Assembly (NCBI GenBank): GCA_965216875.1 | Contig: OZ244207.1 | Span: 2,976,001 to 3,040,000, forward strand | Direction: 5' to 3' | DNA length: 64,000 bases | From: Rubripirellula sp. | GTDB lineage: Bacteria; Planctomycetota; Planctomycetia; Pirellulales; Pirellulaceae | Part shown: positions 4,358-50,810 of the stretch, in pieces | Layout: each line of letters starts with the position of its first letter | How positions within the stretch are numbered: the first letter of the stretch is position 1 | Position numbers and translations under genes: made by a program | Notes under the pieces: generated by a model | Seen by the model: only the letters and a program-made list of their open reading frames with translations | Told to the model about the DNA's origin: nothing | The model's database searches: none

Positions 4358-4365
4358 CTACCTTT

Positions 4366-5273: not shown

Positions 5274-5346
5274 ACGGGCCTTGCGCACGGTAGCAGGGTG
5301 GTGGCTGATCTAGCTCTAAATGTCACGCACTGTTTTCAACAGGAAT

Positions 5347-5499: not shown

Positions 5500-5520
5500 G
5501 TGGGACACCGGAACAATGTG

Positions 5521-6738: not shown

Positions 6739-6892
6739 GCGTTCCGTTTCTTGTCTTAGCTTCGGTCACCAGACCGCTCAAAACAGTGTTGGTCGCGCCC
6801 CGGCGATCGGACAACCGAGCCTGTGACGAGGTAGACTGATCTCGAGTTCGGTCGAGACACCCTTTCACAACACACAAACCAGAGATTGCGCG

Positions 6893-8395: not shown

Positions 8396-8452
8396 TTTGC
8401 AAGAGAGCCGCGACCTGAATCCCCCTTCTGCGCCGCAGCAATTATCCTAGGC

Positions 8453-9304
8453 GTGTCATTTCGCTCCCACGCCGCCCCACCTTCGCCTGTGTTTTCACGA
8501 ATCGCTCTCCTCGCCATCCTCGTTCTATGTACCTCGCATAGCGGGGCCAATGCCACAGACAAAACACACGCGACAGCAAAAGGAATCTCCTATCGCGAAT
8601 CGGATGATCCGTACACGAATCGGATGTGCAAGCTCGACCTGCACTACCCAGTCGACACCAAGAACTTTGCGACCATCGTTTGGTTTCACGGAGGTGGACT
8701 CGAAAAAGGAAAACGCGAGATCCCCAAATACCTCCGAAACAAGGACGTCGCCGTCGCTGGCATCGAATATCGGCTAAGCCCCAACGTCAAAGTGGTCGAC
8801 TGCATTGACGACGCAGCGGCGTCGGTCGCATGGTTGATGAAGAACATCGAGCGCTTCGGCGGGTCCAAAGACAAAATCTATGTCTCCGGTCATTCGGCCG
8901 GTGGCTACTTGACCAGCATGGTTGGTCTCGAAAAAGCGTGGCTCGCAAAATACGAAATCGACGCCGATGCGGTCGCTGGACTGATCCCATTGAGTGGGCA
9001 CACGATCACACACTTCACCGCCCGCAAAGAAATGGGTATCGATGGCAAGCAACCGATCATCGATGAATTGGCGCCCCTATTCCACGTGCGAAATGACTGC
9101 CCGCCATTGGTCTTGATCACCGGCGATCGTGAACTGGAAATGCTTGGCCGGTACGAAGAGAACGCGTACATGTGGCGGATGATGCAACAGGTTGGCCACA
9201 AGGACACCACGCTGCACGAACTGGACGGATTCAACCATGGCCAAATGGTCGAGCCAGCGTTACCGCTCCTCCTGCGTTTCGTCAAAGAACGATCAAAGGA
9301 CTAG
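8453..9304 (+). CDS. Secreted alpha/beta hydrolase (esterase/lipase)
   Basis: FHGGG, GHSAGG nucleophile elbow, C-terminal His (FNHG). Confidence 0.9.
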   Translation: MSFRSHAAPPSPVFSRIALLAILVLCTSHSGANATDKTHATAKGISYRESDDPYTNRMCKLDLHYPVDTKNFATIVWFHGGGLEKGKREIPKYLRNKDVAVAGIEYRLSPNVKVVDCIDDAAASVAWLMKNIERFGGSKDKIYVSGHSAGGYLTSMVGLEKAWLAKYEIDADAVAGLIPLSGHTITHFTARKEMGIDGKQPIIDELAPLFHVRNDCPPLVLITGDRELEMLGRYEENAYMWRMMQQVGHKDTTLHELDGFNHGQMVEPALPLLLRFVKERSKD

Positions 9305-33135: not shown

Positions 33136-36102
33136 ATGGGAATCCTCGACCGCATCTCCGCGCGCCAACGCATCACAATGGGCCTGGTTGGCCTCATGAT
33201 TGGCACGCTCTTGTTCGCTAGTGCGTTCGGCTTCTTCCCCAACGAGCAGAAAGAAATCTTGCGAGGGCGGGCGAGGTTCTGCGATGCGCTGACAATCACT
33301 GCGACCGCAATGTCCTCGGCCGGCAATCCGGGAACGCTCAAAGCGACCCTGGAAGCAGTCGCCAACCGGGACGACTCATCGGACAACGACGTCGTTTCGA
33401 TCGGTCTTCGTGATCTCAGGGGAAAGCTTGTTTACGCTTCGCCAGAACACGAAGCGAAGTGGAACCCTGACGAAACGGACACCATTCGCCAATCGCGATC
33501 GCCTGTGTTTCGAGGTGGCAAGCCCTGGGCCCAACTCGAAGTTCGATTCCGCGATACCGGCGGTCTTTTTGGGCTCAATTATTGGGCACCGGCATGGTTG
33601 CTTGTCGTCATGGTTCCGGTTTGCTTCATTCAATTCAGTTTCTATCTGCGCAAAACGCTCAAGCATCTCAATCCAACCGACCGTGTTCCTCAGCACGTCC
33701 AAGACGCACTCGACACATTGTCGGTCGGTTTGTTGTTGATGGATAACCACCATCGCATCCTGTTTGCGAACTCGCAATTCACTGAAGCGATTGATCGCCC
33801 TGGGCAAGACATGTTCGGCGAAGTTGCGAGCGACCTGCAGTGGCAAACCGCGAACGACGCGGACGTTCCCTGGGAAGTCACCGCCAAGACGGGCGAATCG
33901 ATCGAAGACCAAATCCTGCAACTGCAAGTCGGTGATCGCATCCGAACATTCAGCGTGAATTGTTCGAAAGTCGGCAAAGGAATCATGACAACCTTTGACG
34001 ACATTTCGCTGCTCGAGGAAGCTCGTGAAGCGGCGTTGCAGGCGAGCGAATCGAAAAGTGCTTTCCTGGCCAACATGAGCCACGAAATCCGCACACCGCT
34101 CAATGCAGTGCTCGGATTTACCGACGTTCTTCGCCGCGGTTTGGTCAGCGATTCCGATGAATCACTCGACCACCTGAATATGATCCACCGCAGCGGAAAG
34201 CACTTGCTTGAGCTGATCAATGACATCCTTGACCTGTCGAAAATCGAAGCAGGCAAGATGGAAGTCGAAGCGATCGACACCGATGTCAATCAGATTCTCT
34301 CCGACACCGCCGACGTGCTGAAGGTGAAGGCGGACGAAAACGGACTCGACTTGATCGTTGACTACCGCACGCCGCTACCTTGCGTAATGCAAAGTGACCC
34401 AACGCGATTGAAACAGATTGTCACCAACTTGGTCGGCAACGCAATCAAGTTCACTGAATCAGGTTCTGTAACGATCGCAGCCGAATTGCAAAGCCAAGAC
34501 GATCCAACGCTGCGAATCGAAATCATCGATACCGGGATCGGGATGACGCCCGACCAGCAAGCAAGGATCTTCGAATCCTTCTCACAAGCTGACGAAACGA
34601 CCACACGAAAATTTGGTGGCACCGGTCTCGGGCTGTCGATCAGTCGCCGCCTTTCCGAAGCTCTTGGCGGCAACTTGGTCGTGGAAAGCGAACATGGAAA
34701 GGGCAGCACATTCATTGTGACGCTGCCAGTCGACGAAGCCGCCTTAGAGAACCTGACAAGCGTCGACGAGCTTCGCCAAAAAGGCCGCCGCCGCTCACAA
34801 ACGGCCGACGGAATCATCCGACTACCCGCGAAACATGTTTTGGTCGTGGACGATGGCGAAGCGAACCGACGATTGATCGAGTTGGTCCTCGGTCGCGCCG
34901 GCGCGGTTGTCACCACCGCCGTGAACGGTCTCGACGCAATCAAGCAGCTCTCGGATAAAGACTTCGAACTCATCTTCATGGACATGCAGATGCCCGTTTT
35001 GGATGGCTACAGTGCCACCGAGCGGATTCGCAGCGTCGGATTGCAAACACCAATCGTCGCCCTGACCGGTAATGCAATGAAGGGCGATCGTGAAAAGTGC
35101 CTTGCCTCGGGTTGTACCGACTTCTTGTCCAAACCTGTAGACATCGACAAGCTACTCGCACTGTCCGCCGAGTTTTTGGGAGTTGCCGACCCTGAAGAAT
35201 CAGCCAGTGAGCCAGCGTCGACGCCGCAGGGAGAAGGTGTAGGGAACACGCACGATCCGCTGAGTGATGAAGGCGACAGCACACACGCACTTGGCGACGC
35301 AACGACGCGCGTTCCCAAGCCAGCAATGCCATCCCAGCCGCACACGTCCAACCAAGACCTGGCCACGTTCGGCGATGCAGAATTGCGATTCGACGGCGGC
35401 AAAAACGAAGCCGCCGACGACGGCCCAATCTTCTGCGAAATGCCGATGGACGATCCTGAATTGAAGGACATCGTCGTTGATTTCCTCGACCGCCTGGGAA
35501 CGCGTGTCGACGAAATCTCCACGGCCATCGAGGAAGCCGAATTCGAAACCGTGCGAAGTGAAGCGCATTGGCTCAAGGGAGCTGGTGGGACACTCGGGTT
35601 CCCCGCCTTTACCGAACCGTCGATCACACTCGAAGACGCAGCCAAGGATTCCGACGCTGACCTTGCGCAACAAATGCTCGACACCATCAACGACATTCGC
35701 GCGAGGATTCGTCTTGACGGTGATGAGGCGCCGACAGGCGCGGCGGCGATCGAAGTTTCTCCAGTGTCCGAGAATGATCAAACGGCCTCAACCGATCCGA
35801 TTCCCTGCGCCTTGCCGCTGGACGATCCTGAGTTCGCAGCAATCGCAGCCGACTTTGTGCAACGCCTCGACGTGCGACTTGAACAGATGCGTCAGCGATG
35901 CGTTGAAGGCGATTTCGTTGAACTTGCCCAAGACGCACATTGGCTCAAGGGCTCGGGCGGAACCGTTGGATACGCTGCGTTTTCCGAACCAGCCGCCGCG
36001 CTCGAGGCAGCCGCAAAACGCAATGACATGGCCGATTCGGAACGGCAACTCGATGCCGTATTCGCAGTTCGCCAGAGAATTGTCGTGCCGGAGTTGACCT
36101 AG
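33136..36102 (+). CDS. Membrane hybrid histidine kinase (PAS-like, HisKA, HATPase, REC, two Hpt)
   Basis: FLANMSHEIRTP, NAIKFT, GGTGLGL, FMDMQMP, HWLKGAGG and HWLKGSGG. Confidence 0.93.
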   Translation: MGILDRISARQRITMGLVGLMIGTLLFASAFGFFPNEQKEILRGRARFCDALTITATAMSSAGNPGTLKATLEAVANRDDSSDNDVVSIGLRDLRGKLVYASPEHEAKWNPDETDTIRQSRSPVFRGGKPWAQLEVRFRDTGGLFGLNYWAPAWLLVVMVPVCFIQFSFYLRKTLKHLNPTDRVPQHVQDALDTLSVGLLLMDNHHRILFANSQFTEAIDRPGQDMFGEVASDLQWQTANDADVPWEVTAKTGESIEDQILQLQVGDRIRTFSVNCSKVGKGIMTTFDDISLLEEAREAALQASESKSAFLANMSHEIRTPLNAVLGFTDVLRRGLVSDSDESLDHLNMIHRSGKHLLELINDILDLSKIEAGKMEVEAIDTDVNQILSDTADVLKVKADENGLDLIVDYRTPLPCVMQSDPTRLKQIVTNLVGNAIKFTESGSVTIAAELQSQDDPTLRIEIIDTGIGMTPDQQARIFESFSQADETTTRKFGGTGLGLSISRRLSEALGGNLVVESEHGKGSTFIVTLPVDEAALENLTSVDELRQKGRRRSQTADGIIRLPAKHVLVVDDGEANRRLIELVLGRAGAVVTTAVNGLDAIKQLSDKDFELIFMDMQMPVLDGYSATERIRSVGLQTPIVALTGNAMKGDREKCLASGCTDFLSKPVDIDKLLALSAEFLGVADPEESASEPASTPQGEGVGNTHDPLSDEGDSTHALGDATTRVPKPAMPSQPHTSNQDLATFGDAELRFDGGKNEAADDGPIFCEMPMDDPELKDIVVDFLDRLGTRVDEISTAIEEAEFETVRSEAHWLKGAGGTLGFPAFTEPSITLEDAAKDSDADLAQQMLDTINDIRARIRLDGDEAPTGAAAIEVSPVSENDQTASTDPIPCALPLDDPEFAAIAADFVQRLDVRLEQMRQRCVEGDFVELAQDAHWLKGSGGTVGYAAFSEPAAALEAAAKRNDMADSERQLDAVFAVRQRIVVPELT

Positions 36103-36249
36103 GCAAACGGAACAATCGGCAGAACCGCCACCCTCTCTACGGCTGGTAGGGTTTCCCCGAATTGCCGCAGTTCAAATCGACATTTCGTCGTTGTCCGCCA
36201 TCATTCCATGCCATGTTTTCACGTTGGGGCACAACATGCGCACGGGCCG

Positions 36250-37437
36250 ATGAACGATACTCCCTCCCTTACACAGCCGACGACCGCCGCTTCCAATGCG
36301 GTTGTTGCTGCGCGCGAAACGCCCGAGCGGCTACCCGGCAACATCATGATCGTCGATGACGAGCCGGCGAACATTGCGATCGTTCGCAAACTATTGGAAC
36401 GCTCCGGCTACTGCTCGTTCAAATCAACGACCGATTCAACGGAAGCGTTTAAGATGATCCTGGCCACCATGCCAGATCTGATCTTGCTCGACATCAACAT
36501 GCCGCAAGTCAGCGGCATCGACATCTTGCAGTTGATTCGCACCACTGCCCAAACCAAACATCTGCCGGTCCTGATTCTGACCGCCAATTCGGACAACGAC
36601 GTCAAGTTGACCTGTCTCGAACTCGGTGCAACCGACTTCCTGGTCAAACCAGTCGACCCGATGGAGTTGACGCCGCGTGTTCGCAACGCACTGCAAATCA
36701 AGTCCTTCCAAGACCGTTTGAAGCGTCATGCTCACGAACTCGAGAAGAAAGTTCAAGAGCGAACCAAAGAACTTGAACTGAGTCGTCGTCAGGCAATCTA
36801 CTGCCTCGCGCGTGCTGCAGAGATGCGTGACAACGACACCGGTCACCATGTCATTCGCGTCGGTCGCTTTTCAGGAATCATTGCCAGAAACATGGGCTTT
36901 TCCGACGCCTATGTTTCCGACATCGAACTCGCCGCGCAATTGCATGATGTCGGCAAGATCGCTGTGCCCGATGCGATCCTGCTAAAACCTGGCAAGTTGG
37001 AAGCCGACGAATTCGAAGTCGTCAAAAACCATGTCAAGCATGGACGCAATATCATCCAGCCCTATCTGGCCAACGACGCAACGGTGATGCAAAGTCACGT
37101 TGAACGCGGCGCCGAAATGCTCGCCGATGGAAGTAGCCTCATGAAAATGGCTGCGACCATCGCGCAAACGCACCATGAAAAGTTCGACGGAACCGGCTAC
37201 CCGATTGGCTTGGCCGGCGAAGACATTCCGATCGAAGGCCGGATCACAGCGGTCGCCGACGTTTACGATGCGCTTTCCTCAGAACGTTCCTACAAAAAGG
37301 CGTTGCCGCGACAGAAGTGCTTCGAGATTCTTGAAGAAGGGCGTGGTAAGCACTTTGACCCCAAGGTTCTTGACGCGTTCTTCAACGGCGCATCGGACAT
37401 TGTCAAGATTCAAGTCGAGTTCATGGACTGCGACTAG
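36250..37437 (+). CDS. REC + HD-GYP cyclic di-GMP phosphodiesterase (RpfG-like)
   Basis: IVDDE, LLDINMP, HDVGK, HHEKFDGTGYP, ADVYDAL; start uncertain. Confidence 0.92.
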   Translation: MNDTPSLTQPTTAASNAVVAARETPERLPGNIMIVDDEPANIAIVRKLLERSGYCSFKSTTDSTEAFKMILATMPDLILLDINMPQVSGIDILQLIRTTAQTKHLPVLILTANSDNDVKLTCLELGATDFLVKPVDPMELTPRVRNALQIKSFQDRLKRHAHELEKKVQERTKELELSRRQAIYCLARAAEMRDNDTGHHVIRVGRFSGIIARNMGFSDAYVSDIELAAQLHDVGKIAVPDAILLKPGKLEADEFEVVKNHVKHGRNIIQPYLANDATVMQSHVERGAEMLADGSSLMKMAATIAQTHHEKFDGTGYPIGLAGEDIPIEGRITAVADVYDALSSERSYKKALPRQKCFEILEEGRGKHFDPKVLDAFFNGASDIVKIQVEFMDCD

Positions 37438-37660: not shown

Positions 37661-38713
37661 CTAACAGATCCTCGGCAGCGGAGCACCTGCCGGATCATCG
37701 ATTGGCATTCGTACCCCCGAGACGGATTCGATCATCGCTCCGGTCTTTCCCGCACCGCCCACGCATCCAATCTCGACGGCGTCGGCCGAAACGTCATACC
37801 TCTTCATCACTTCAATCGCCTTGGCAACGGCGTCTGATTTGACGGCAAGGACGAAGGTTCCCTCATTGGCGACATGGATCGGATCGATACCAAGCAGCTC
37901 ACAGACACCACGCACACTCCCGTCGACTGGCAGCGTGTCCTGCCGAACCACCATCGCGTGACCACTGACTTCGCTCCATTCATGCAGCACTGCCGCGACA
38001 CCTCCACGCGTTGCGTCTCTCATGCTCACCAAGCCGTCGCCGACATCCGCAATGAGTGCGGCGGTCACTTCATGAAGTGGCGCTGAATCGGACGATGGTT
38101 GTGGCGAGAAGCCCATGCTTTCACGGGCCGACATCACCGCGATCCCGTGCCGCCCCAACGGGCCACTGACGATCAATGCATCGCCTTCCTCAAGCGACGA
38201 TGCTCCCGGTGGGCATCCTTGCAACAATTCTCCCACGCCTGTCGTATTGATGAATAACTTGTCAGCCGCACCACGGGGAACAACTTTTGTATCGCCGGCC
38301 ACCACTTTGACGCCGCACTCTTTGGCCGCCTTCCTGATTTGCGACAACACCCGCTTGAGTGTTTCCAGCGGCAAGCCTTCTTCGATGATCAGCGCCAACG
38401 TGATCCATCGGGGGACCGCACCGGCGACGGCAAGGTCGTTGACCGTCCCAAAGATGGCCAGCGAACCGATGTCGCCACCAGGAAAAAACAACGGATCGAC
38501 AACAAAACAATCTGTCGAGATAGCCCACAAACCACCGCCCGCTTCCACGATCGCAGCATCAGAAAACTGCGTTTCCTCGGGCGTCACCGCAGGTGCGATC
38601 CAGCGGTGAATCAACTGTCGCGTCAACCGCGCGCCTTCGCCGTGGGCAAGCGTAACGACCGATGCGTCACCGCTGCCATCGACTGGACAACTTGCGTCTT
38701 CCTTCCATGTCAT
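37661..38713 (-). CDS. hypE: Hydrogenase maturation protein HypE
   Basis: LAHGEG, FPGGDIG, GDTKVV, RDATRGG, ANEG, C-terminal PRIC. Confidence 0.96.
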   Translation of the reverse strand: MTWKEDASCPVDGSGDASVVTLAHGEGARLTRQLIHRWIAPAVTPEETQFSDAAIVEAGGGLWAISTDCFVVDPLFFPGGDIGSLAIFGTVNDLAVAGAVPRWITLALIIEEGLPLETLKRVLSQIRKAAKECGVKVVAGDTKVVPRGAADKLFINTTGVGELLQGCPPGASSLEEGDALIVSGPLGRHGIAVMSARESMGFSPQPSSDSAPLHEVTAALIADVGDGLVSMRDATRGGVAAVLHEWSEVSGHAMVVRQDTLPVDGSVRGVCELLGIDPIHVANEGTFVLAVKSDAVAKAIEVMKRYDVSADAVEIGCVGGAGKTGAMIESVSGVRMPIDDPAGAPLPRIC

Positions 38714-39828
38714 CGCAAAGACACCTTCCTCGAACCCACGTCCGATCGATAGCGATCATAAGCTGCACATGCTCCTTCGCTGGAAACCATCGGCGCACCC
38801 AACGGATGATCTGCGGTGCATTCGTTCCCAAAGAAAACGCATTCTGGCGGTTTGATTCTTCCGGACATCACGTCGGCACTACGGCACTTCGATTCTGATG
38901 GCGCAATGGGCAAGGGTGTGAGGTTTACGAATTTGCGCTGTGCATCATACGCTGCAAACTCGTCCCGCAAGCGGAACCCACCCGACTGAACCGTCCCGAT
39001 GCCGCGCCAATCCCGGTCGCAAACTTCAAACACGCGATCGACCATCAGCCGCGCTGCTCGGTTCCCACTTGATTCAACGCTTCGCCCGTAGCAGTTCTCA
39101 AGTTTCGCTTCGTTTTGCTCCAATTGTGTGGTCGCCGCGAGAATGCCCTTCAGCAAGTCAACCGGCTCGAACCCCGTCACAACTACAGGAACGCGATGCT
39201 CCTTGATGAATGGCGCGTAGTCACTTGTGCCGGTAATCGTGCACACGTGGCCGGCGGCCAGAAAAGCATCGATTCGACAATCGGGTTCGGACATCAATGC
39301 CCGCATCGCGGGAACAACGCGAACATGTGAGACAAGCAGCGAAAAGTTGGTTAGCTCCAATCTTGCCGCTTGCAACACCGCAAGCGCCGTGGCGGGCGCC
39401 GTGGTTTCGAATCCAACCGCGAAGAAGACCACTTGCTGGTTGGGATCTGCCGCAGCCAAGTCCACTGCATCGATGGGCGAATACACCGTTGTGACCTTGC
39501 CCCCTTTCGCACGCACGTTCATCAGCGAGTCGCATGAACCGGGCACGCGCAACATGTCGCCAAAGCTAGTGAGCGTAACCCCCGGCGATTGGGCGAGCGT
39601 TTGCGAAAGATCGATTGCTTGCGTCGAGGTTACGCAAACGGGACACCCGGGACCATGAATCAACTCGATCTTCTCGATAAGCGCATCTTCGATTCCATTG
39701 CGCAAAAGGCTGTGAGTTTGCCCTCCACAGACATCCATCAAAACCCAGCGACGCGACGCTGTGCGTTTGATTTTGCCGATCAATCGCTGACACAACTTGG
39801 CATCTCGATACTCATCCACAAACTTCAT
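38710..39828 (-). CDS. hypD: Hydrogenase maturation protein HypD
   Basis: VCGGQT, GPGCPVCV, GFETT, MVSSEGAC. Confidence 0.97.
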   Translation of the reverse strand: MKFVDEYRDAKLCQRLIGKIKRTASRRWVLMDVCGGQTHSLLRNGIEDALIEKIELIHGPGCPVCVTSTQAIDLSQTLAQSPGVTLTSFGDMLRVPGSCDSLMNVRAKGGKVTTVYSPIDAVDLAAADPNQQVVFFAVGFETTAPATALAVLQAARLELTNFSLLVSHVRVVPAMRALMSEPDCRIDAFLAAGHVCTITGTSDYAPFIKEHRVPVVVTGFEPVDLLKGILAATTQLEQNEAKLENCYGRSVESSGNRAARLMVDRVFEVCDRDWRGIGTVQSGGFRLRDEFAAYDAQRKFVNLTPLPIAPSESKCRSADVMSGRIKPPECVFFGNECTADHPLGAPMVSSEGACAAYDRYRSDVGSRKVSLR

Positions 39829-40103
39829 GAAACGCCTCGATTCGTTGGCGTTTCCGGTCCACCGGTCTCTTCGTCAAGAAGCTCGAGACGACGCAGTTCA
39901 TCAAAAACTCTTTCAGCCTCTTCGGCATCCACTTTGGTGATCGCGATGCCTGCGTGCACGATCACGTACTCACCAACTTCGACATCAACAACGCACGCCA
40001 TATGACATCGCCGGGTCAGCCCGTCGAACTGCACCTCCGCCTGCGCAAACGTTGGATCTCGATCGATCCAGCGAACAACCTTTCCGGGCACACCTAGGCA
40101 CAC
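39825..40103 (-). CDS. hypC: Hydrogenase chaperone HypC
   Basis: MCLGVPG...VIVHAG. Confidence 0.95.
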   Translation of the reverse strand: MCLGVPGKVVRWIDRDPTFAQAEVQFDGLTRRCHMACVVDVEVGEYVIVHAGIAITKVDAEEAERVFDELRRLELLDEETGGPETPTNRGVS

Positions 40104-42367
40104 GTCGTATTCCTCGTAGCGATTGCTGCCGCAACTAATTGGCCCATTGCGAGCCCGCCATCGTTGACGGGAACCAAACCGGGCAAGATCACACGACTGG
40201 GGTAATCACGAAAACTCTCCGCAACGGCCTCGACCAACACTCGATTCTGAAAAACGCCCCCCGAAAAGACGACAGGCAATTCACGGTATCGTTCGGCCAC
40301 GCATCGAAAAGCCTCTGCGAGTCCGAGATGAAAACGCGACGAAATCACGCCCGGGGCGACACCCGATTCGACATCACACGCGAACTCATCAAGCATCGGC
40401 ACCCAGTCAATTTCCACCAGATCATTGCGATCCCGAAGGGGAAAAGCATAGCCTCCGTGCTTACTCGGTTCGCAAACCGATTCAAACTGCATCGCCGCTT
40501 CACCTTCAAAACTCGACGTCGAAACACCAAGCAAGAGTGCCGAGACACCATCGAACAAACGTCCCAAGCTTGTCGTTCGAATCCCAACCGATTTCTCTTG
40601 TAGCCTCCAAACCGCTTTGCAATCGATGTGCTGTGGAACGAGCCCGAGCGCTCGCTCGATGAGTTGCTTGTTCCCGGTGACGCAGGCAATCGCAACGGCG
40701 CTTCGCCAGGGCTCCATTGCAGCCCGATCACCACCCATCACGTGGAACGGCCGAATGGAACCGAGCCGCTGCATCTGGTCCCCTTCGACACGTAAGATCT
40801 CGCCACCCCAGACCGTTCCGTCGTCTCCTAAGCCGGTTCCATCCATTGAAAAGCCAACGAGCTCGGAGGTTTCAAGGCCATGTTCGACCGAAGAGGCCAA
40901 GACGTGCGCATGATGGTGTTGAACGCCGTGCGGATCGACCTGTTTCTTCCTCGCAAATCCGGATGTGAAGTAGTCGGGATGAGTATCGTGTGAAATCGTC
41001 TTTGGGTCACGATCGAATAGCCGCGTCAGCGACTTCCATTGATCTTCGTAGCGGTCGCACGTGTCGACCGTTCCGACATCACCCACATGAGGCCCCAGAA
41101 CAAACTGACGCTCCCCAGCAAAAGCCATGGAAGCCTTTTGCTGGCCGCCCACCGCAGCGACCGAATGATCTGCAACTTGCTCGCTGCGTCGAATCACGAT
41201 CGGAGCAATGCCCCGTCCTGCCCGAAACGTCGCCACCTTCTCCGCCATGCATCTCACAACGCTGTCATCGATCGGGCGGACGATTTCTCGGTCATGATGC
41301 AAGAAAAAGTCGACGCGACCAGCGAAGCGATCGCGAACCGCCCCCGGTTCAAATTCAATTGGAGCGCCAGACACATTCGCGCTGGTCACCACAAGCGGTC
41401 GCTGCAAGAACCACAGCAAAATCGCGTGCAGCGGAGTCGTCGGAAGCATCAATCCAAGATCGGCGACCCCAGGTGCGACGTTATCGGCGATCACTCCACC
41501 TTCGCTGCCGTTCTTTCGCATAAGCACGATTGGGCCGGCGGCGCTCGCAAGCGTCTCTAACTCAAGCTCCGATGCTTGAACCAATGACACCGCAGCTTCG
41601 ACCGACTGAACCATCACGGCCATCGGTTTTTTGGGCCGACACTTTAGCCCACGCAAACGTGCAACCGCTTCGTGGGCCGATGCATCGCACACAAGCTGGT
41701 ACCCGCCCACGCCTTTGATCGCAACGATGCCATGGCCGCGAATCGCTGAGACGGCCGCCTCAATCGGCTCGTCGCTTCCGCTACTGCACGTTGACAAACG
41801 CGGGCCACAGATCGGGCAACAGTTGGTTTGCGAGTGGAAGCGACGATCGGCCGGGTCGGTGTACTCTCGCTGGCAAGCTTCGCACATTTTGAAAGTCGCC
41901 ATACTTGTCCGCGCCCTGTCGTAGGGCATCCCGCGGATGATGGAATAGCGAGGGCCACATTCAGCGCAGCTGGTGAATGGATACAGGAACCTACGATTCG
42001 ACGGGTCAAACGTTTCGTTCATGCAGGCCGAACACGTCACGCGGTCCAGCGGTACGGAAACATCCTTACCAACTTCGTTGCTCTCGACAATCTCGAAACA
42101 GGCCGCTTGTTTCGCATTTGTTGACGATTGATGAACAGATATCTCGACCGTGGGACCGACAAACCGTTTGGCAAGTCTTTGCACGAAGACATCGACCGCA
42201 CCGGCACTTCCAGAGACCTCGACTTCAACGCCAGAAAGTGTGTTGCGCACAAATCCATCGAGACTCAGTTCACGCGCCAGCACTGCAATCTTTGGGCGCA
42301 CGCCGGTCCCTTGAACCGTCCCATCGAGGACCAAACGCCGAGCGATCTGGTTGAAAGCCATCGTCAT
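40094..42367 (-). CDS. hypF: Carbamoyltransferase HypF
   Basis: Acylphosphatase-like N-terminus, two Zn fingers, KGVGGY, QHHHAH, DGTG, NDGG. Confidence 0.96.
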   Translation of the reverse strand: MTMAFNQIARRLVLDGTVQGTGVRPKIAVLARELSLDGFVRNTLSGVEVEVSGSAGAVDVFVQRLAKRFVGPTVEISVHQSSTNAKQAACFEIVESNEVGKDVSVPLDRVTCSACMNETFDPSNRRFLYPFTSCAECGPRYSIIRGMPYDRARTSMATFKMCEACQREYTDPADRRFHSQTNCCPICGPRLSTCSSGSDEPIEAAVSAIRGHGIVAIKGVGGYQLVCDASAHEAVARLRGLKCRPKKPMAVMVQSVEAAVSLVQASELELETLASAAGPIVLMRKNGSEGGVIADNVAPGVADLGLMLPTTPLHAILLWFLQRPLVVTSANVSGAPIEFEPGAVRDRFAGRVDFFLHHDREIVRPIDDSVVRCMAEKVATFRAGRGIAPIVIRRSEQVADHSVAAVGGQQKASMAFAGERQFVLGPHVGDVGTVDTCDRYEDQWKSLTRLFDRDPKTISHDTHPDYFTSGFARKKQVDPHGVQHHHAHVLASSVEHGLETSELVGFSMDGTGLGDDGTVWGGEILRVEGDQMQRLGSIRPFHVMGGDRAAMEPWRSAVAIACVTGNKQLIERALGLVPQHIDCKAVWRLQEKSVGIRTTSLGRLFDGVSALLLGVSTSSFEGEAAMQFESVCEPSKHGGYAFPLRDRNDLVEIDWVPMLDEFACDVESGVAPGVISSRFHLGLAEAFRCVAERYRELPVVFSGGVFQNRVLVEAVAESFRDYPSRVILPGLVPVNDGGLAMGQLVAAAIATRNTTCA

Positions 42368-43041
42368 GGGGAGCGAGACAACATTTGATCTCGTTTTTCA
42401 AGTAGCCAATCACACCACTGCTTGATTCCTTCATCCCGCAGTGCCGAGCTTTGCAGGACGTCGAGCTCGCCACGAATGTCTCGGGCATCTTCCCAAACTC
42501 GATCGACCGAAAAGGGAAGATGTGGCAAGAGGTCCGTCTTCGTCACCATCATCAAGTCGCTTGTGCGGAACATTTTGGGATACTTGCCCGGTTTGTCATC
42601 ACCCTCCGTCGTGCTTATCAAAACCACACGCTGATGCTCGCCCAAATCATGAGACGCCGGGCATACCAAGTTGCCAACATTCTCGATGAATAGAAACTCG
42701 TACTCCAAATCGGGCAGGCGCCCGAGTCCGCGCTGGACCAACTCCAGTTCGAGGTGACAGGCGCCACCCGTCGTTAATTGCCTCACGGGCACATAGGGTT
42801 CCAACCGCTGGGCATCGCGGTCGGTGGCGAGATCGCCAACCAAAACTGCCATGCGATGCTCGCCTGCCCAATACCTTGCCGTCGCTTCAAGCAATGCCGT
42901 TTTGCCTGCCCCCGGTGACGAGACAAGATTGACCACCAAGGTTCCAGCCTGGGTCCAGCGTTCTCTTTGGGCGTCAGCGGCTCTCTTTCGCTCTTCTTGA
43001 AGGTCGCGATTGACCGAAATCGTTTTCGTCGAAACGTTCAT
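42364..43041 (-). CDS. hypB: Ni-insertion GTPase HypB
   Basis: SSPGAGKT, CH motif, ENVGNLVCP, TKTD. Confidence 0.96.
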   Translation of the reverse strand: MNVSTKTISVNRDLQEERKRAADAQRERWTQAGTLVVNLVSSPGAGKTALLEATARYWAGEHRMAVLVGDLATDRDAQRLEPYVPVRQLTTGGACHLELELVQRGLGRLPDLEYEFLFIENVGNLVCPASHDLGEHQRVVLISTTEGDDKPGKYPKMFRTSDLMMVTKTDLLPHLPFSVDRVWEDARDIRGELDVLQSSALRDEGIKQWCDWLLEKRDQMLSRSP

Positions 43042-43418
43042 TGGCTCACACTACCCGCACTCACTTCTTCCAAACCGATCTCTAACAACATAACCGCGTC
43101 ACCCGACTCGACGCGAACGTGACGTGAATCACAACTTGGACATAGGAACTTGAACGACTCGACGGCAAAGTCGTGCTGGCAATCGCTGCAAACGGCTCTC
43201 AGCTCGGATTCGACGATCTCCAGCATTGCTCCCTCAAGTCCGTAGCGTCCGGCAAGTTGAGCAAACGCGATTTGCATCAACGTCGGCTCGACACCCGATA
43301 GAGGTCCAACCGAGATCGAAATGGATGAAACTTGGGTTGAGGGATCGTCGTTCGATTCCTCACCAGCTATCTCCGTGACCTGCCGCAGCAACGATCGCAC
43401 AATCGAAAATTCATGCAT
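43038..43418 (-). CDS. hypA: Ni chaperone HypA
   Basis: MHE N-terminus, CSDC and CPSC. Confidence 0.93.
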   Translation of the reverse strand: MHEFSIVRSLLRQVTEIAGEESNDDPSTQVSSISISVGPLSGVEPTLMQIAFAQLAGRYGLEGAMLEIVESELRAVCSDCQHDFAVESFKFLCPSCDSRHVRVESGDAVMLLEIGLEEVSAGSVSQ

Positions 43419-43920
43419 GCGAAAGCTCTCCGGCGATTCGATCAGCACACCGAGTGACAAGTGATTTTGCGGTCTCGTTCACATCCAATCGATTGATTCG
43501 AGCTGGCAGCGCCCAAAGCGTGACCTGATCTGGCAGACGCCCGAGCTGATTCGCGAGCGTCAAGACGGACACAAGATCGAGCTGATGCGACGATGTCGAA
43601 CAAAGCTCACTTGTGATTGCGATAGGGCTCCCGTCTTCGGCCACAAGAAAAGAAGCTTCCGTTCCGATCAAGCCCCAATCGACTCGAAAACACAAAATGT
43701 CAGCTTCTTCTTCGCCTTCGCATTGATACGCATCAACGACATGAAGCGGATGCTCAGCACTCACAACGTCCATCAAACAGTGTGGAACCTTCAACTGATG
43801 CGTCGTTACATTCATGCCATCGCGCGCACCAAGTTCCTCGGCGACCCTCCATCCCAGTTGGTCATCGCCAAAGGGGCTGCCAACGCCAACGACCAGCGGT
43901 TGTTTCTCGTCCCCACTCAT
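43411..43920 (-). CDS. Hydrogenase maturation endopeptidase
   Basis: VGVGSPFGDD, VVDA, SSH; follows the large subunit. Confidence 0.85.
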   Translation of the reverse strand: MSGDEKQPLVVGVGSPFGDDQLGWRVAEELGARDGMNVTTHQLKVPHCLMDVVSAEHPLHVVDAYQCEGEEEADILCFRVDWGLIGTEASFLVAEDGSPIAITSELCSTSSHQLDLVSVLTLANQLGRLPDQVTLWALPARINRLDVNETAKSLVTRCADRIAGELSHA

Positions 43921-45218
43921 TTCCTGGTCACGTTCAGTTTCAAGAAGTGTGTCGAGCAACTAATGCATGGATCAAAACTTCGAATCAGCTTCTCACACTC
44001 TTTCGCCGCATCCTCGTCGGAACGGTTGAGCAAATCGGGCAGCAACATGCGCAAGTCCGATTCGATTTGCCCTTGGTTTTGCGCCGTCGGCGGGACAATT
44101 CTCGCAAACTCGACCAAACCGTCTTTGTCGACCCGGTAACGGTTATAGATCAATCCGCGCGGTGCTTCGGTCGCCGACACGCCTTGTCCCGCAACGGGTT
44201 CGTAAGCAGCACGTGATGGCGACGGAGGCTCGTAGGTGCTGATGATCTCGATCGCTTCTTCGTAGGCATGAACAACTTCAATCGCCCGCGCAACGATCGA
44301 TTGATAGGGGTTGAAGCAAGGCCACTCGATTGGCACTTCTTCTGCGATCCGGCGAGCAATGGGGAACAAATTCCTTCGATTGAGGTTCATTCGGGCCAAT
44401 GGACCAACTGCGTAGGGCAATTGATCCGGCGCCCGCACACTCTGCAGCGCCGTACTGTGCGGCACTTGTGTCTCCGTGAAATGCTGCTCGTAGTCGGTCA
44501 CATCAATCTTCAATCCACGCGTCGATTCGATGCGTCCCTCGTTCATGGGATACTCGTCATCATGGACAAGAGCAACCATTTCACACGGGCTCAGGAAATC
44601 AGGAAATTCCAACTCACCAGTCCATTGGGCGACTTCTACCGACGCGTCGAGTCCCCAGCGGTATTCGTCTAGCAATGTTTGCAAATCGGACTTGCCGGGT
44701 GAACGATAGAATCCACCCACAGCGACATTCACTGGATTCACAGCACGTCCACCGAGCACTTCAAGGAGTTCATTCCCGAGCTTCTTCAGTTTCAGACCTC
44801 GATTGACTTCGTCCGGCAGGATCTTCGCCAATTCGATGCTGCTGTCGCATTGAAAAAAGTCCGGGAGATGCAACAGGTGCATGTGCACGCCGTGACTCTC
44901 GATCCATTCGGCGCAATAGAGCAGCCTACGAAGCCTTCTTACCTCGGGGCTGATTTCAATTCCGAGTGCTGACTCGAGCGAGTGAACCGAAGTCATTTGA
45001 TACGCGACCGGGCAAATCCCGCAAATCCGCGCGGTGATGTCGGGGGCCTCCTCTAGCCGGCGGCCTCTCAGCATCGCTTCAAAAAAACGTGGTGGCTCGT
45101 AGATCGCCAACTCGACGGCCGTCACCCGGTCACCCTCGACCGTCACGTTCAATGCGCCTTCACCTTCCACACGAGTAAGTGCGCCGACGCTGATCTTGCG
45201 GGCCCCGGACTTCGTCAC
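43917..45218 (-). CDS. Group 3b [NiFe]-hydrogenase large (alpha) subunit
   Basis: TRVEGEG, L1 RICGICPVAY, EAPRG, L2 DPCISCSTH plus a cleavable tail. Confidence 0.95.
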   Translation of the reverse strand: MTKSGARKISVGALTRVEGEGALNVTVEGDRVTAVELAIYEPPRFFEAMLRGRRLEEAPDITARICGICPVAYQMTSVHSLESALGIEISPEVRRLRRLLYCAEWIESHGVHMHLLHLPDFFQCDSSIELAKILPDEVNRGLKLKKLGNELLEVLGGRAVNPVNVAVGGFYRSPGKSDLQTLLDEYRWGLDASVEVAQWTGELEFPDFLSPCEMVALVHDDEYPMNEGRIESTRGLKIDVTDYEQHFTETQVPHSTALQSVRAPDQLPYAVGPLARMNLNRRNLFPIARRIAEEVPIEWPCFNPYQSIVARAIEVVHAYEEAIEIISTYEPPSPSRAAYEPVAGQGVSATEAPRGLIYNRYRVDKDGLVEFARIVPPTAQNQGQIESDLRMLLPDLLNRSDEDAAKECEKLIRSFDPCISCSTHFLKLNVTRK

Positions 45219-46030
45219 GATACGATTCCCTGGTCAGTGTGTGGATCGATTCGGTCGCCGCAATCGCGAAACGCGGGCGCACTTGAACTGACGTTGCGCA
45301 GAAGCTGTACCAACTCTCCTGTCGGAACGCCCGATTCAAGATGGTGGTCTGCCAAGGCATCGCAATTCGCCTGCGTGACCGGCCCAAAGCACCCATAACA
45401 GCCGCGATGAAACTTTGGACAGAGCGCGCCACATCCAGATTGAGTGATTGGACCTAGACAGGGAATTGAGCCTGCAACCGAGACGCAAACCAATCCGGAG
45501 CGTTTGCAATCGAGACAAACGCTGTGCCGCGGCGTCTTGGGACGTCGTCCCCGTACAAGTGAAAGGAGGACTTCGAGCAATTGATGTTTATCAACTGGAC
45601 AACCACGCAACTCGAAATCAACGGTCACATGATCGGCGATCGCGGTCGACGTCGAAAGCGTCGAGATGTAGGCCGGCGTGGCGTAGACATGACGCACGAA
45701 CTCGCTGTGATCCGCCCAGTTTTTTAACGATTGAATGCCGCCCGATGTTGCACAGGCTCCAATCGACACCAAAACCATTGCCTGTTTACGTATCTCGACG
45801 ATTCGCTTGCGGTCTTCCGGCGTCGTGATCGAACCTTCGACCAGCACGATGTCATAGGGTCCATTTTCAATCCGGCTCGTTGCCTCAAGGAAGTGAACGA
45901 TCTCGACCATCTCGGCCAAAGGCAAAAGTTCGTCCTCACACGAAAGCAACTGAAGCTGACATCCGTCACAGGATGCAAATTTGAAGACGGCCAGCTTTGG
46001 GCGCGACTCGCTTTCAGCCGGTTTGTGCAT
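45215..46030 (-). CDS. Group 3b hydrogenase small (delta) subunit
   Basis: SCDGCQ, GACATSGG, GCP, CLGP, GCYGCFGP. Confidence 0.93.
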   Translation of the reverse strand: MHKPAESESRPKLAVFKFASCDGCQLQLLSCEDELLPLAEMVEIVHFLEATSRIENGPYDIVLVEGSITTPEDRKRIVEIRKQAMVLVSIGACATSGGIQSLKNWADHSEFVRHVYATPAYISTLSTSTAIADHVTVDFELRGCPVDKHQLLEVLLSLVRGRRPKTPRHSVCLDCKRSGLVCVSVAGSIPCLGPITQSGCGALCPKFHRGCYGCFGPVTQANCDALADHHLESGVPTGELVQLLRNVSSSAPAFRDCGDRIDPHTDQGIVS

Positions 46031-46032
46031 CG

Positions 46033-46899
46033 TCAGACTCCTTGGACATGCAGCCAATGAGCAACTCGGTCATACCGTAACACGGGGCCGTCCTTGCACA
46101 AGAATTCCGGGCCAAGTTGGCAGTGCCCACAGTGCCCAATCGCACAATTCATATTCCGTTCGAGTGAAACCCAAACGTTTTCCTTCTTGATGCCACGTTG
46201 AATCGCCGCCTCCGCAACATACCGCATCATGACCTCCGGCCCGCAGGTCAAAACAACTGCCCGCTCCGGCGACTGAAGGGGAAGCCGCTCGAGCAAGAGC
46301 GTCACCACACCGACGTTACCCTTCCAATCTTCATCGGGGCGATCAACCGTTGTTTGAACGGTAAGCCCGGTCGATCGCCAGCGGTCATATTCGCGCGAAT
46401 ACAAAAGATCACATGGCTGCCTTGCACCGACCAATACCGCGATGCGGTCGCCATCAATCAAACCAGCGGACAACTCATGGACCATTGCCCGAAGGGGCGC
46501 AAGACCGATGCCTCCGGCAACAATCACAACCTCAATCGGTTCGGCGCGACTGCGTTTGAGTGGGCTCGTAGGCCAAGCGGTGCCGAAGGGGCCACGCAAT
46601 CCGAATACATTGCCGGGCGCAACATCGATCGCGTTGGTAACCGAACCGACCGCACGAATCGTATGCCTCAACCCGGTCGGACTCGCGCCGGCGATCGAGA
46701 TCGCGGCTTCGCCGATTCCCGGCACGTACAGCATGTTGAATTGCCCGGGCAACCACGCGTACTGATCGTGAACCGCAGCATCGGCAAATCGGAACTCGAA
46801 CGTTTTCACACCCGGCGTCTCGTCGATCACATGCATCAACTCAACCTGCAGGGTTTCCCAGGGGTCGGTCGTTGGTCTTGGCATCGTTGACAACGTCAT
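46033..46899 (-). CDS. Group 3b hydrogenase gamma subunit (FAD/NAD(P), 2Fe-2S)
   Basis: PGQF, RGPFG, AGGIGLAPL, CGPEVMM, CAIGHCGHC...CKDGP. Confidence 0.93.
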   Translation of the reverse strand: MTLSTMPRPTTDPWETLQVELMHVIDETPGVKTFEFRFADAAVHDQYAWLPGQFNMLYVPGIGEAAISIAGASPTGLRHTIRAVGSVTNAIDVAPGNVFGLRGPFGTAWPTSPLKRSRAEPIEVVIVAGGIGLAPLRAMVHELSAGLIDGDRIAVLVGARQPCDLLYSREYDRWRSTGLTVQTTVDRPDEDWKGNVGVVTLLLERLPLQSPERAVVLTCGPEVMMRYVAEAAIQRGIKKENVWVSLERNMNCAIGHCGHCQLGPEFLCKDGPVLRYDRVAHWLHVQGV

Positions 46900-48134
46900 G
46901 ACTCTTCCTTCACCACCGCGCAAGCCGATCCAGTCGCCGGTTGAACAACGGGCAGCGACCGGCGCCGAACCGGTTGGCTGCAAACTGCGGCGATCTCCTT
47001 TCTAACGTCAATCCCGACCGGACACCAAGTGATGCATCGACCGCATCCGACGCATCCCGAGGAGTCGAACTGGTCGTGCCAGGTAGCAAACTTGTGCGTC
47101 AACCATTGGCGATAGCGACTTCGCACATCCGCCCTGACAACGCCGTCAGCCGTGTAGGTGAAGTCGAGGTGAAAACAAGAGTCCCACTGCCGAACCCTTG
47201 CGACCTTTTCCTCGAGTAGGTCCGAATGGTCCGTCACGGTCGAACAAAAACAGGTCGGACATACCATCGTACAGTTGGTGCACGACAAACAGCGACTTGC
47301 AACATCGTCCCAATGAGGATGATCGGGTTGAGACAAAAGTTCGTCACGCAATCCATCCGTTTCGAAGTCTCGCGTCATGCTGGCCGCCGTCTCGGCGCTA
47401 ACCTGGGCAGCCAACTCGATTTCTCCGGCAGTAGCCGGACGCCTATTGACCTCACCGAGCACGCTCGCCCCTTTTCCACTACCAGTCTCAACCACAAACC
47501 CTTCATCCAACTCGCTCAAACAAAGGTCAAAATTGGCCTCACACTTTGGCCCCGTCCCCATCGTCGTGCAGAAGCAGGTGTCGGCGGCGGTCGAACAGTT
47601 CACGGCAATCAGAAAAAGTCGTTCACGCCGAGCCCGGTAGAACCGGTCAACATAGGGTCCACCAAGAAACACTTTGTCTTGGATTGCGATCGCTGCCAAC
47701 TCACACGATCGCACTCCTAGGAACGCAAACTGGTCGGTGGGCGGAGCGGGCGTTTTGAACTCCCAGCTTGTATCCGAATCGGTTTGATTGCTCGTTGCCG
47801 ACATCATCTCAAGCTCGGCAGGGAAAAGGTACTTCTTCCAGGAATGGGGTCCCACGTTGAAATGAAACCAACGCCCAGACGCGTCTTCGTTGAGCTCATA
47901 GTGACCGGCCCCCTGCGTGTCGGACATTCCGTAGGGCAGGGCAGAGGTCGACTCAATTTCGTCGTAAACGATTGCGTTTTGATCGATGGTTGGCGCAACG
48001 ACGCGAAAACCTTCTGCCTTCAAGACATCGATCAACGCCTGCAGCTGATCCTTGCCGATGAACTGCGGCCCGGACAACACCGTGTCTTTTTCTACTTCCG
48101 GCTTCGCTGAACGTTCCGACATCCTTTCCGACAT
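46896..48134 (-). CDS. Group 3b hydrogenase beta subunit (4Fe-4S dicluster)
   Basis: CLSCTNCTMVCPTCFC, WDSC, CVGCGRCITWCP. Confidence 0.93.
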   Translation of the reverse strand: MSERMSERSAKPEVEKDTVLSGPQFIGKDQLQALIDVLKAEGFRVVAPTIDQNAIVYDEIESTSALPYGMSDTQGAGHYELNEDASGRWFHFNVGPHSWKKYLFPAELEMMSATSNQTDSDTSWEFKTPAPPTDQFAFLGVRSCELAAIAIQDKVFLGGPYVDRFYRARRERLFLIAVNCSTAADTCFCTTMGTGPKCEANFDLCLSELDEGFVVETGSGKGASVLGEVNRRPATAGEIELAAQVSAETAASMTRDFETDGLRDELLSQPDHPHWDDVASRCLSCTNCTMVCPTCFCSTVTDHSDLLEEKVARVRQWDSCFHLDFTYTADGVVRADVRSRYRQWLTHKFATWHDQFDSSGCVGCGRCITWCPVGIDVRKEIAAVCSQPVRRRSLPVVQPATGSACAVVKEES

Positions 48135-48601
48135 CACTGATCCTCGAAGTGATACAGGTCCAGCAACTGTAGACGCGTCGCCAACAATCGACTCGAAAGC
48201 GATTTGGCAACGAATTGCATGACTGCGTATCCGGTTTTCTCGTCCGCTTGACACAGTTTCCGCAGCGCTTCACCAGGGGCTTCGATCAGCGTTGCAGCGT
48301 CGATCACCTTCGCTGTCGCCGTCATCCGTCCGTCGCCCAGTAAGCCTGACCAGGCAAGCAACTGCCCTGGACCGACCGTCAAGATCTGCTGGCTCCCGCA
48401 CTTGGCCGTCACCATGTCAAGCGCGACCATTCCTTCACACACCAGGTAAAGCTGCTGGTGAATTTCGCCTTCGGCAAAGAGAATCGTTCCGCTCGGATAG
48501 CTGCTCAGCTTTGAGACATCGGCCAGCTTCGCAAGGACATCCTGATCACAGACCTGGATCTCGAGCTTGCGATACGCTTCGATTACCGCAGACGCACTCA
48601 C
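48134..48601 (-). CDS. Stand-alone cyclic nucleotide-binding domain protein
   Basis: GTILFAEGE, LYLVCEG, VGPGQLLAWSGL, TATA; no HTH; TGATG coupling to the beta subunit. Confidence 0.88.
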   Translation of the reverse strand: MSASAVIEAYRKLEIQVCDQDVLAKLADVSKLSSYPSGTILFAEGEIHQQLYLVCEGMVALDMVTAKCGSQQILTVGPGQLLAWSGLLGDGRMTATAKVIDAATLIEAPGEALRKLCQADEKTGYAVMQFVAKSLSSRLLATRLQLLDLYHFEDQ

Positions 48602-48696
48602 CGTTGTGATTCCTTGCTGCTAAACCGTCACGAAGCGGCGCGTTGAGACGAAGGTCAATCAACGCGCCATCGATACTGATTCGAGACCGAATCGCG

Positions 48697-49263
48697 TTAC
48701 GCCAAGGCTGCTTGAATCTCGTCCAAGACTTCTTGTTCGGCCTTCGAGATCTTTCCGAAACCGAGCACGCCTCCCGATGCTTCGGCCACGACCGTCGCGA
48801 TCTTCAGGATGTTCTTGGTCAACTGCACTGCAGCCGAATCCGAAAGCCCTTCGCTTACTGCCGCAGCATAGTGACGCCACACATCCCAGAGCGTACGTTT
48901 CGGTCGATGGGCCAACCAATTCTCGAGCAGTTGCGATGCAAGTCCATCGTCGTCGATACCGCGTTGATGCGCGGCTTTGAGAATCGCGTCGTGCTCTGGC
49001 TGAGTCACCGAATCATCGGCCCACGCAACAAACACCGCAGGAACGAGTGCCAACGCTGCGAGCGTCGTCGCTTCAATACCGGCTTCCACTAGCTCATCAA
49101 GCAATGCTTCGTCGGTCAGCCCGGTCGCTTTGCGAAGCGCATCGCGCGACTTGTCTTTCTCCATCGAGCGTCGCAGCTCTTCACGGAGTTTCTCATCGAC
49201 TCGGTGAAAGAACTCGTCCTCAAGCGCCCGTTCTCGTTGTGCAAATGCGTCTGTTTCATACAT
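48697..49263 (-). CDS. Hypothetical protein: IF1/zeta-like N-terminal helix plus TerB-like helical domain
   Basis: MYETDAFAQRERALEDEFF; AWADDSVTQPE and VAEASGG..GKISKAE TerB-like repeats; GAGG RBS. Confidence 0.7.
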   Translation of the reverse strand: MYETDAFAQRERALEDEFFHRVDEKLREELRRSMEKDKSRDALRKATGLTDEALLDELVEAGIEATTLAALALVPAVFVAWADDSVTQPEHDAILKAAHQRGIDDDGLASQLLENWLAHRPKRTLWDVWRHYAAAVSEGLSDSAAVQLTKNILKIATVVAEASGGVLGFGKISKAEQEVLDEIQAALA

Positions 49264-49333
49264 GGTTCTGGCCTCGAGATTAGAGTAGGGAATCCATTTC
49301 GGCGCTCGGCCGCTTTGGCCCAACGCGTTCTTA

Positions 49334-49351
49334 TTGCAAGCGCCGTTCCAA
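49334..49351 (-). promoter_or_regulatory. Putative sigma54 promoter of the hydrogenase operon
   Basis: Minus strand TTGGAACGGCGCTTGCAA, GG-N10-GC, about 70 bp upstream of ATG 49263. Confidence 0.7.
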
Positions 49352-50687: not shown

Positions 50688-50810
50688 GTAGCGACCTTCG
50701 CCGTTTGTAGTCCCGCCTTTAGGCGGTCTTTGAGAAGTTTCCGGCTAAAGCTCGGTACTACGAACTACCAGCTCAAAAGATCTCAGGCTATCTGGCGACA
50801 ATTCGCTTCT
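50688..50810. repeat. Family D inverted pair inside a degenerate family E pair
   Basis: tttgtagtcccgcctttaggcgg...ccggctaaagctcggtactacgaac, flanked by gtagcgaccttcgcc and tctggcga...ctac. Confidence 0.75.

Follow-up and report, generated by a model that had tools for sequence, protein, structure and literature searches.

Mitochondrial IF1 (Pfam family IATP, PF04568; bovine 2v7q, human 8h9e, yeast 3zia) is an inhibitor of ATP hydrolysis by F1 with a long helix, and its final contacts with F1 are made by F22, A28, E30, Y33, F34, Q41, L42 and L45; E30 is salt-bridged to R408 of the beta subunit, E26 is dispensable and the inhibitor is inactive on eubacterial enzymes (PMC3041923). Residues 1-19 of IF1 wrap the gamma subunit, and IF1 that lacks its first 19-22 residues remains an inhibitor, though a weaker one (PMC10066207). 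According to the available text of a 2022 review, IF1 is absent from prokaryotes and arose after mitochondrial endosymbiosis, the bacterial brakes of ATP synthase include epsilon and zeta, and the gene for zeta lies outside atp operons; that text does not mention TerB, planctomycetes or myxobacteria (PMC9317440). Our search of the open-access literature, with subscription journals mostly outside its scope, found no bacterial IF1 and no account of the family described here. Two other systems are relevant to the locus: the plant protein P2 (At2g27730), a complex I subunit that touches the carbonic anhydrase domain of that complex with its N-terminus (PMC7447434), and the DosR-controlled group 3b hydrogenase (Hyh) of Mycobacterium smegmatis, which sheds reductant as H2 under hypoxia (bioRxiv 10.64898/2026.10.24.761498).

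Here we analysed a stretch of 64,000 nucleotides (the window) from the planctomycete Rubripirellula sp. (assembly GCA_965216875.1, contig OZ244207.1, positions 2,976,001 to 3,040,000 of the forward strand), in which a protein that we call P0001 carries an IF1-like N-terminal helix. Weighing the gene, the modelled helix and body, the IF1-specific likeness, the conservation pattern, the promoter consensus and the gene context, we regard it as probable, short of confident, that P0001 acts in bacteria as an inhibitor of F1 ATP hydrolysis of the IF1 type and is induced under energy or oxygen stress. Like IF1, P0001 has a long (predicted) helix, a gene apart from the ATP synthase genes and a plausible role under oxygen lack. 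Unlike IF1, it is bacterial, scores under the Pfam cut-off and has an activity that is predicted from sequence; it also lacks a counterpart of IF1 1-15 with its gamma-contacting short helix, and its helix ends at residue 47, where a globular TerB-like body replaces the antiparallel dimerising coiled coil (49-81). Alphaproteobacterial zeta resembles P0001 in having an N-terminal conserved segment, which in P0001 is at the free N-terminus, followed by a helical globular domain, and in having its gene outside atp operons. P0001 differs from zeta in giving no profile match to it, in carrying a body predicted to be TerB-like, where zeta has a four-helix bundle, and in occurring in other phyla. With TerB/DUF533 proteins (2ou3, 2jxu and PG1108, 2h5n) P0001 shares the predicted fold of residues 48-188 and, in its relatives, weak Pfam matches, and it differs from them in its extra IF1-like helix, in lying outside any ter operon and in having no TerB Pfam match of its own. 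That P0001 scores under the IF1 cut-off, is without the N-terminal region and dimer coil of IF1 and is unmatched by zeta does not lower our estimate that it would work like them.

The gene and its operon

The features of the locus, in window coordinates, are as follows.

48697..49263, minus strand: gene of P0001 (188 aa), with IF1-like helix and TerB-like body; single open frame from ATG
49335..49351, minus strand: sigma54-type -24/-12 site, 12/13 consensus positions by consensus scoring, 88 nt 5' of the P0001 ATG
49153..49251, minus strand: IF1-like segment, P0001 codons 5-37, in register with IF1 20-52 and inside predicted helix 3-47
48700..49122, minus strand: TerB-like helical body, P0001 codons 48-188
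48637..48668, minus strand: hairpin without U-tract, within the 95-nt gap between P0001 and the cNMP gene
48134..48601, minus strand: stand-alone cyclic-nucleotide-binding (cNMP) domain protein (PF00027, E 1e-14)
46896..48131, minus strand: group 3b-type hydrogenase beta subunit (4Fe-4S); best models ShyB/HydB, under their cut-offs
46033..46899, minus strand: hydrogenase gamma subunit (FAD/NAD(P)-binding), by family models
45215..46030, minus strand: hydrogenase delta (small) subunit, by family models
43917..45218, minus strand: [NiFe]-hydrogenase alpha (large) subunit (PF00374); best models ShyA/HydA, under their cut-offs
43411..43959, minus strand: hydrogenase maturation protease (TIGR00072, E 3.6e-9, under cut-off); limits are those of the ORF, the true start being probably later
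37661..43460, minus strand: six contiguous ORFs, putative hypA, hypB, hypF, hypC, hypD and hypE, named by their motifs

The first-pass annotation of the window had described a gene with this N-terminus, directly behind a sigma54-type promoter and ahead of cNMP, hydrogenase and hyp genes. The gene was confirmed as a minus-strand ORF and is single-copy in the host genome. The promoter was borne out as well: sites of at least 12/13 number only 53 on both strands of the 8.26-Mb host genome, which also encodes sigma54 (rpoN). For the downstream genes, models recovered the cNMP protein and the hydrogenase subunits, and the hyp names are those that we presume from sequence motifs. Divergent from P0001 lies a K+ channel/TrkA gene with its start at 49683. 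The four hydrogenase subunits stand in the order beta-gamma-delta-alpha with an NAD(P)/FAD-binding gamma subunit, and their best models are those of NAD(P)-linked sulfhydrogenase-type (group 3b) enzymes, all four scoring under the archaeal equivalog cut-offs. The enzyme is of the group 3b type, as is Hyh, from which it differs in that its control looks sigma54-based and its induction under anoxia is presumed.

The hairpin behind P0001 (z -2.0, with equally stable structures in 6/200 shuffles) did not register as a terminator and could stabilise the first cistron or set it apart. One identical contig, from a run (X1) that is RNA only by guess, spans 48143-49303 and bridges P0001 and the cNMP gene; the hydrogenase genes are uncovered in this same run, and three other runs gave no match at all. 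Such coverage is no proof of a transcript, of its start or of its level. Elsewhere in the window, genes for a PAS/Hpt hybrid histidine kinase and for a response regulator with an HD domain (33136-37437, plus strand) run towards the far end of the hyp genes, and positions 50700-50766, 3' of the K+ channel gene, match several other contigs and are probably a repeated intergenic element.

Likeness of the N-terminal helix to IF1

A helix profile was built from the first ~44 residues of 113 non-redundant homologues, one misplaced row (L087) having been dropped from the family set. A search of 177,635 PDB sequences with this profile brought up 14 matches at E<=10. Eight sequences of IF1, together with plant P2, fill the first nine ranks (E 0.0017-0.16, with P2 at 0.013), the next match stands at E 0.75, and the alignment to IF1 20-52 is free of gaps. 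When the 113 segments were scanned singly, Pfam IATP was matched at E<=0.1 by 27 of them (best 1.2e-5) and the next family by three; the remaining 86 N-terminal segments were without an IATP match. Composition-matched natural 44-mers served as controls, 110 in number after three family members had been dropped from 113, and at most one of these matched IATP, since every family matched twice is among the 25 listed, and IATP is not one of these. P0001 matches no Pfam family but IATP (E 0.056 over its full length, E 0.0027 over residues 1-44), and its scores (14.4 bits for the whole protein, 18.6 for residues 1-44 and 17 in the genome search) lie under the Pfam gathering cut-off of 25 bits. When the host genome was searched in six frames, nothing but its gene matched IATP at E<=1, a loose limit at which four of 14 control genomes give weak IATP matches too. 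A control profile of unrelated helices did not find IF1 in the PDB and is a poor control, because its rows are not homologous. The Atlas gave no usable match for residues 1-45.

The first-pass annotation had called the N-terminus IF1/zeta-like, and only the first half of this description stood, with IATP matched below its cut-off. The zeta family, PF07345 (formerly DUF1476), had no match at E<=1 in the host genome, a search in which Caulobacter-containing controls do match, one of them over the cut-off, and zeta is absent both from the 16 families matched by the 113 N-termini and from the 14 PDB matches of the helix profile. By these profile comparisons, the helix resembles IF1 beyond chance, though weakly per sequence, and the likeness covers about 33 residues and may reflect homology or convergence.

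Conservation of the IF1 contact positions

In the common register, a P0001 position plus 15 gives the IF1 position. P0001 accordingly starts at IF1 position 16, and only four residues precede the position of IF1 G20; since truncated IF1 still inhibits, a protein starting at this point could work. The eight contact positions of IF1 are kept, as the same or a conservative residue, at 6/8 in P0001 and at 7/8 in the family consensus, Q41 being unmatched and P0001 itself having R at the L42 position. In the corresponding columns of 279 non-redundant relatives, F22 is L/F/I in 94%, A28 is A in 72%, E30 (E15 of P0001) is E in 97%, Y33 is F/Y in 98%, F34 (F19) is F in 99%, L42 is L/I in 57% and L45 is L/M/I in 92%; the Q41 column, the mismatch, is L in 88%. 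The R25 position of IF1 is R in 85% of these relatives, and the positions of IF1 kept in the family comprise R25, A28, E30, Y33, F34, L45 and K46. Conserved helix positions fall on the F1-contact residues of IF1, in support of the first-pass annotation. Mean conservation was 2.76 bits in the contact columns and 1.50 in the other columns of 6-30 (permutation p 0.005, 279 relatives), a measure in which rare aromatics score high, and sliding the set of contact columns by -7 to +8 gave at most 2.11 bits; the test is partly circular, because the register was taken from the IF1 profile matches.

The working family motif is [LF]xxRxxALExxFFxxx[DN]xxLLxxLR. Of the motif proposed at first, F-x-x-R-E-x-A-x-E, the R, the A and the second E are kept, the E after R (position 11, equivalent to IF1 E26) occurs in 20% and F7 is mostly L. 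Three positions are strongly kept without an IF1 counterpart, namely L14, D/N23 and L26 (IF1 E29, A38 and Q41), and together with the R at the L42 position they may point to a face for self-association or to a different partner. A subfamily that starts near the acidic core (E-E-x-Y-F), found at L090:9212-9793, L165:84-668, L176:106-687 and L182:5652-6236, is without the F22/R25 part and resembles mammalian IF1 29-34; IATP was unmatched by the two full-length members of it that were scanned.

A TerB-like body and a separable helix

The AlphaFold2 model of P0001 (148 sequences) has a mean pLDDT of 93 and shows one helix, 3-47, followed by seven helices. The two best matches in a wide fold search over 48,161 chains were 2h5n (Z 8.4, rmsd 3.2, 106 aligned), matched over 48-188, and the TerB protein 2ou3 (Z 7.6, rmsd 4.9, 126 aligned), matched over 31-188; the third reached Z 5.5, and the top Z values are middling for a helical protein. 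We take 2h5n (PG1108) to be TerB-like. TerB-like chains thus come first, and zeta is unlisted among the top 50 fold matches. Foldseek returned nothing at E<=0.001 for the model, Pfam TerB/DUF533 gave no match for P0001 itself, NCBIfam held no family for it, and the Atlas matches of the whole protein were unnamed or TerB clusters only. Among 38 close relatives, TerB was matched at E<=1 by 26 and DUF533 by 21, around the A-W-A-D-G...E segment, and one of eight distant relatives scored over the TerB cut-off. The fused TerB-like domain of the first-pass annotation is in this way supported by relatives and by the predicted fold, not by a Pfam match of P0001. Proteins of the TerB/DUF533 superfamily have acidic metal-binding residues, and, as possible counterparts, D83, E90 and E176 stay unchanged in 91-98% of the 151 sequences compared for the present family; conserved in the body of P0001 are also P75, W81, W116, P121, W129, a glycine-rich loop (164-170) and S173. 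The most conserved residues of the protein lie outside the known fold, which would suggest an outside partner.

Comparison within the family shows the helix to be a separable module. A rough sorting of 121 metagenome loci by pattern gave 53 with the full motif, 32 with the E-x-x-F-F core only, 16 with no helix, 14 others and six that were cut off. When 113 rows were placed in a quick tree without a root, 10 of the 12 helix-less rows fell in one branch (SH-aLRT 95), and in a tandem protein the inner repeat is alignable only from residue 28. A look for shorter forms among 357 candidates yielded three matches, each of them seemingly a fragment or the product of a frameshift, and longer forms amounted to 0/7,999 candidates, which is weak evidence given that fused forms do exist. 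A helix-less TerB-like body is fused to an FHA domain at L185:5923-6747 and L202:661-1530.

The module could serve self-association instead of F1 binding: P0001 would then be a TerB-superfamily stress protein with its helix as an oligomerisation or domain-swap arm, and the IF1 likeness would reflect convergence of an amphipathic charged helix. Positions 7, 14, 18, 26 and 30 are readable as one helical face, L14, D/N23 and L26 differ from IF1, the IATP scores are under the cut-off and named relatives point to tellurite resistance or YebE/DUF533. We nevertheless consider such an arm unlikely, as composition-matched helices do not match IATP, the PDB ranking is IF1-specific, helix-less relatives exist, and an invariant E15 and R10 would be atypical for a coil core. 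Covariation, in a weak test, gave no clear contact between helix and body, the best such pair reaching z 4.8 against 11.8 within the body.

Distribution of the family

Of 1,410 candidates, 158 are close relatives of P0001, the nearest named ones being from Pirellulaceae, and the family comprises 2,029 cluster representatives at 50% identity (E<=0.001). Database names for relatives are hypothetical, tellurite resistance protein or YebE/DUF533. The gene is present in 159/201 genomes of the host family, Pirellulaceae; in a phylum-wide genome sample, the full-length gene was found in only 10/301 and any match in 15/301. The suggestion that this is a planctomycete-specific brake proved too narrow, as Acidobacteriota, Gammaproteobacteria, 'Deltaproteobacteria' and three Burkholderia plasmids supply named members in addition to Planctomycetota, and one set of Atlas clusters has Myxococcota as its most frequent phylum. 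Stieleria bergensis and Roseimaritima are examples of cultured carriers. One homologue (L274:5697-6254) is putatively viral, lying on a 416-kb contig of a viral collection (30% GC). Divergent paralogues occur in L018, at 7052-7765 (minus strand) and 8001-8555 (plus strand), one of them with a degenerate motif.

ATP synthases of the host as candidate target

The host genome encodes one F-type ATP synthase operon and also a V/A-type ATPase. A PF00006 match at 5155812 was considered as a second alpha subunit and rejected, as it lies among flagellar export genes; it presumably represents FliI. Host F1 beta keeps the equivalents of I390, L391, V404, R408 and D450 and has H for S405, in a numbering inferred from the human alignment. 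Because E. coli beta keeps most of the same pocket residues and IF1 is inactive on eubacterial enzymes, we regard the host pocket as permissive, not discriminating. Host epsilon (128 aa) keeps its C-terminal extension, so that another brake may exist already. Complex prediction with host alpha 93-503, beta 81-480 and residues 1-50 of P0001, each entered as an alignment, scored 0.50 (runs 0.50, 0.55 and 0.47), as against 0.00 and 0.00 with the partner replaced and 0.49 with alpha replaced and beta kept, by which the required margin was missed; the three-chain design makes these scores unreadable for or against binding, and a pass could reflect likeness to solved IF1-F1 structures.

It is also conceivable that the helix is a true relative of that of IF1 and binds another machine, for instance a ring ATPase (the V/A-type enzyme or some other) or a complex of respiration. 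P2, a single-pass membrane subunit and in this unlike P0001, is matched by the same helix profile and shows reuse of the motif, with a different partner open to an IF1-like helix; a V/A-type ATPase is present in the host, and in one of 53 planctomycete loci the family gene stands beside one. In that locus, L016, a V/A-type operon (3-7452, minus strand) lies head to head with the homologue (8001-8561, plus strand), and it is the only ATPase neighbour of its kind in 186 loci. We find this reading distinctly doubtful, since the family keeps those columns with which IF1 engages F1 beta, a V/A neighbour was seen just once and no sigma54 site precedes the V/A operon of the host (best 8/13).

Genomic context

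The first-pass annotation had proposed that the gene forms a fixed module with a fermentative hydrogenase, and this was not upheld. Hydrogenase genes lie directly downstream of the family gene in 10/53 planctomycete loci, with a beta gene within 8 kb in 14/53. They were found in 0/133 further loci (122 metagenome or viral contigs from a motif scan, nine genomes and two plasmids), which were probed with planctomycete proteins and of which only 47 are at least 4 kb long. The hydrogenase large subunit was matched in 67/201 host-family genomes, and by a count made by hand the family gene occurs in 60/67 hydrogenase-positive and 99/134 hydrogenase-negative ones. Carriage by so many genomes without a hydrogenase match, together with the few linked loci, indicates that the gene is an independent unit. 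A role dedicated to the group 3b hydrogenase, whether as accessory or as regulator, which the gene's place as first operon gene here and in the ten linked loci and its presence in most hydrogenase-positive genomes might suggest, is for the same reasons highly improbable. The degenerate-motif homologues L082:8924-9517 and L083:9218-9799 come from two host-family genomes with hydrogenase.

The sigma54-type promoter does recur before homologues. Sites of at least 10/13 precede 34/54 family genes, that of P0001 included, against 3% of random or upstream background stretches; an opposite-strand site is also present at 13/54 genes, and the 54 loci are not independent, several coming from the same genomes and about nine being near copies. 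Among hydrogenase-linked genes, 10/11 have such a site. A strict pattern used at first missed the site of P0001 itself and scored the opposite strand as often (11 vs 14 of 54), and the scored version replaced it. Genes for universal stress proteins (USP) occur in 29/53 planctomycete loci and for P-type ATPases in 18, and genes for PEP synthase, CBS, AAA_33 and sigma54 activator proteins in three to six loci each; USP genes were found in 1/133 further loci with planctomycete probes, again with 47 loci of at least 4 kb, and in this set, outside the planctomycetes, the stress context did not recur. In planctomycetes, sigma54 sites and USP islands are thus the firmer link than the hydrogenase, and the context, as read from gene content, fits energy stress. 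No ter genes were among the 21 recurring neighbour families scanned, the neighbours in the window being hydrogenase and K+ channel genes, and the 186 loci probed contained no F-type atp genes.

Other recurring arrangements were seen. Near-identical units, in which sigma54 sites stand back to back and genes for USP and P-type ATPases are present, occur in L024, L025, L026, L032, L036, L044, L047, L053 and L054, with up to four per genome, and may be mobile. A neighbour of ~150 aa without Pfam match recurs in 12/54 loci (L004, L007, L013, L017-L019, L023, L027, L029-L031 and L033), and a dihydroorotate dehydrogenase-like gene lies beside the family gene in 10 of 54.

Discussion

Taken together, we favour the interpretation of P0001 as an IF1-type brake on F1, which would operate as follows. 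When the proton motive force falls, the helix would enter F1 and stall reverse rotation of the ATP synthase, with E15 pairing with the arginine (host R413) that corresponds to R408 of bovine beta, and with F7, A13, F18, F19 and L30 filling the pockets used by IF1 F22, A28, Y33, F34 and L45. Inhibition would depend on this direction of rotation. The TerB-like body would replace the dimerising coil of IF1 and probably serve as stalk, anchor or sensor. In Pirellulaceae the gene would act under a sigma54-type promoter in stress islands, and here, presumably co-transcribed with the genes behind it and induced on loss of oxygen, it would head a group 3b-type hydrogenase operon. On our summary reading of the loci, some Pirellulaceae have placed the gene in a sigma54 stress regulon.

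A further idea, which we offer as tentative and hold to be less probable than its negation, is that the family is a bacterial relative, possibly the source, of mitochondrial IF1, in which case early eukaryotes would have taken over the helix and neither invented it nor derived it from zeta. On that idea, equally tentative, an F1-braking helix on a TerB-like sensor body would exist in Planctomycetota, Myxococcota, Acidobacteriota and part of the Proteobacteria. If a family that numbers about 2,000 clusters has an N-terminus closer to IF1 than to zeta, it would be either a prokaryotic relative of IF1 or a further independent invention of such an F1-jamming helix, and either outcome bears on the origin of IF1 and on how aerobes of soil and sediment may keep their ATP during oxygen loss.
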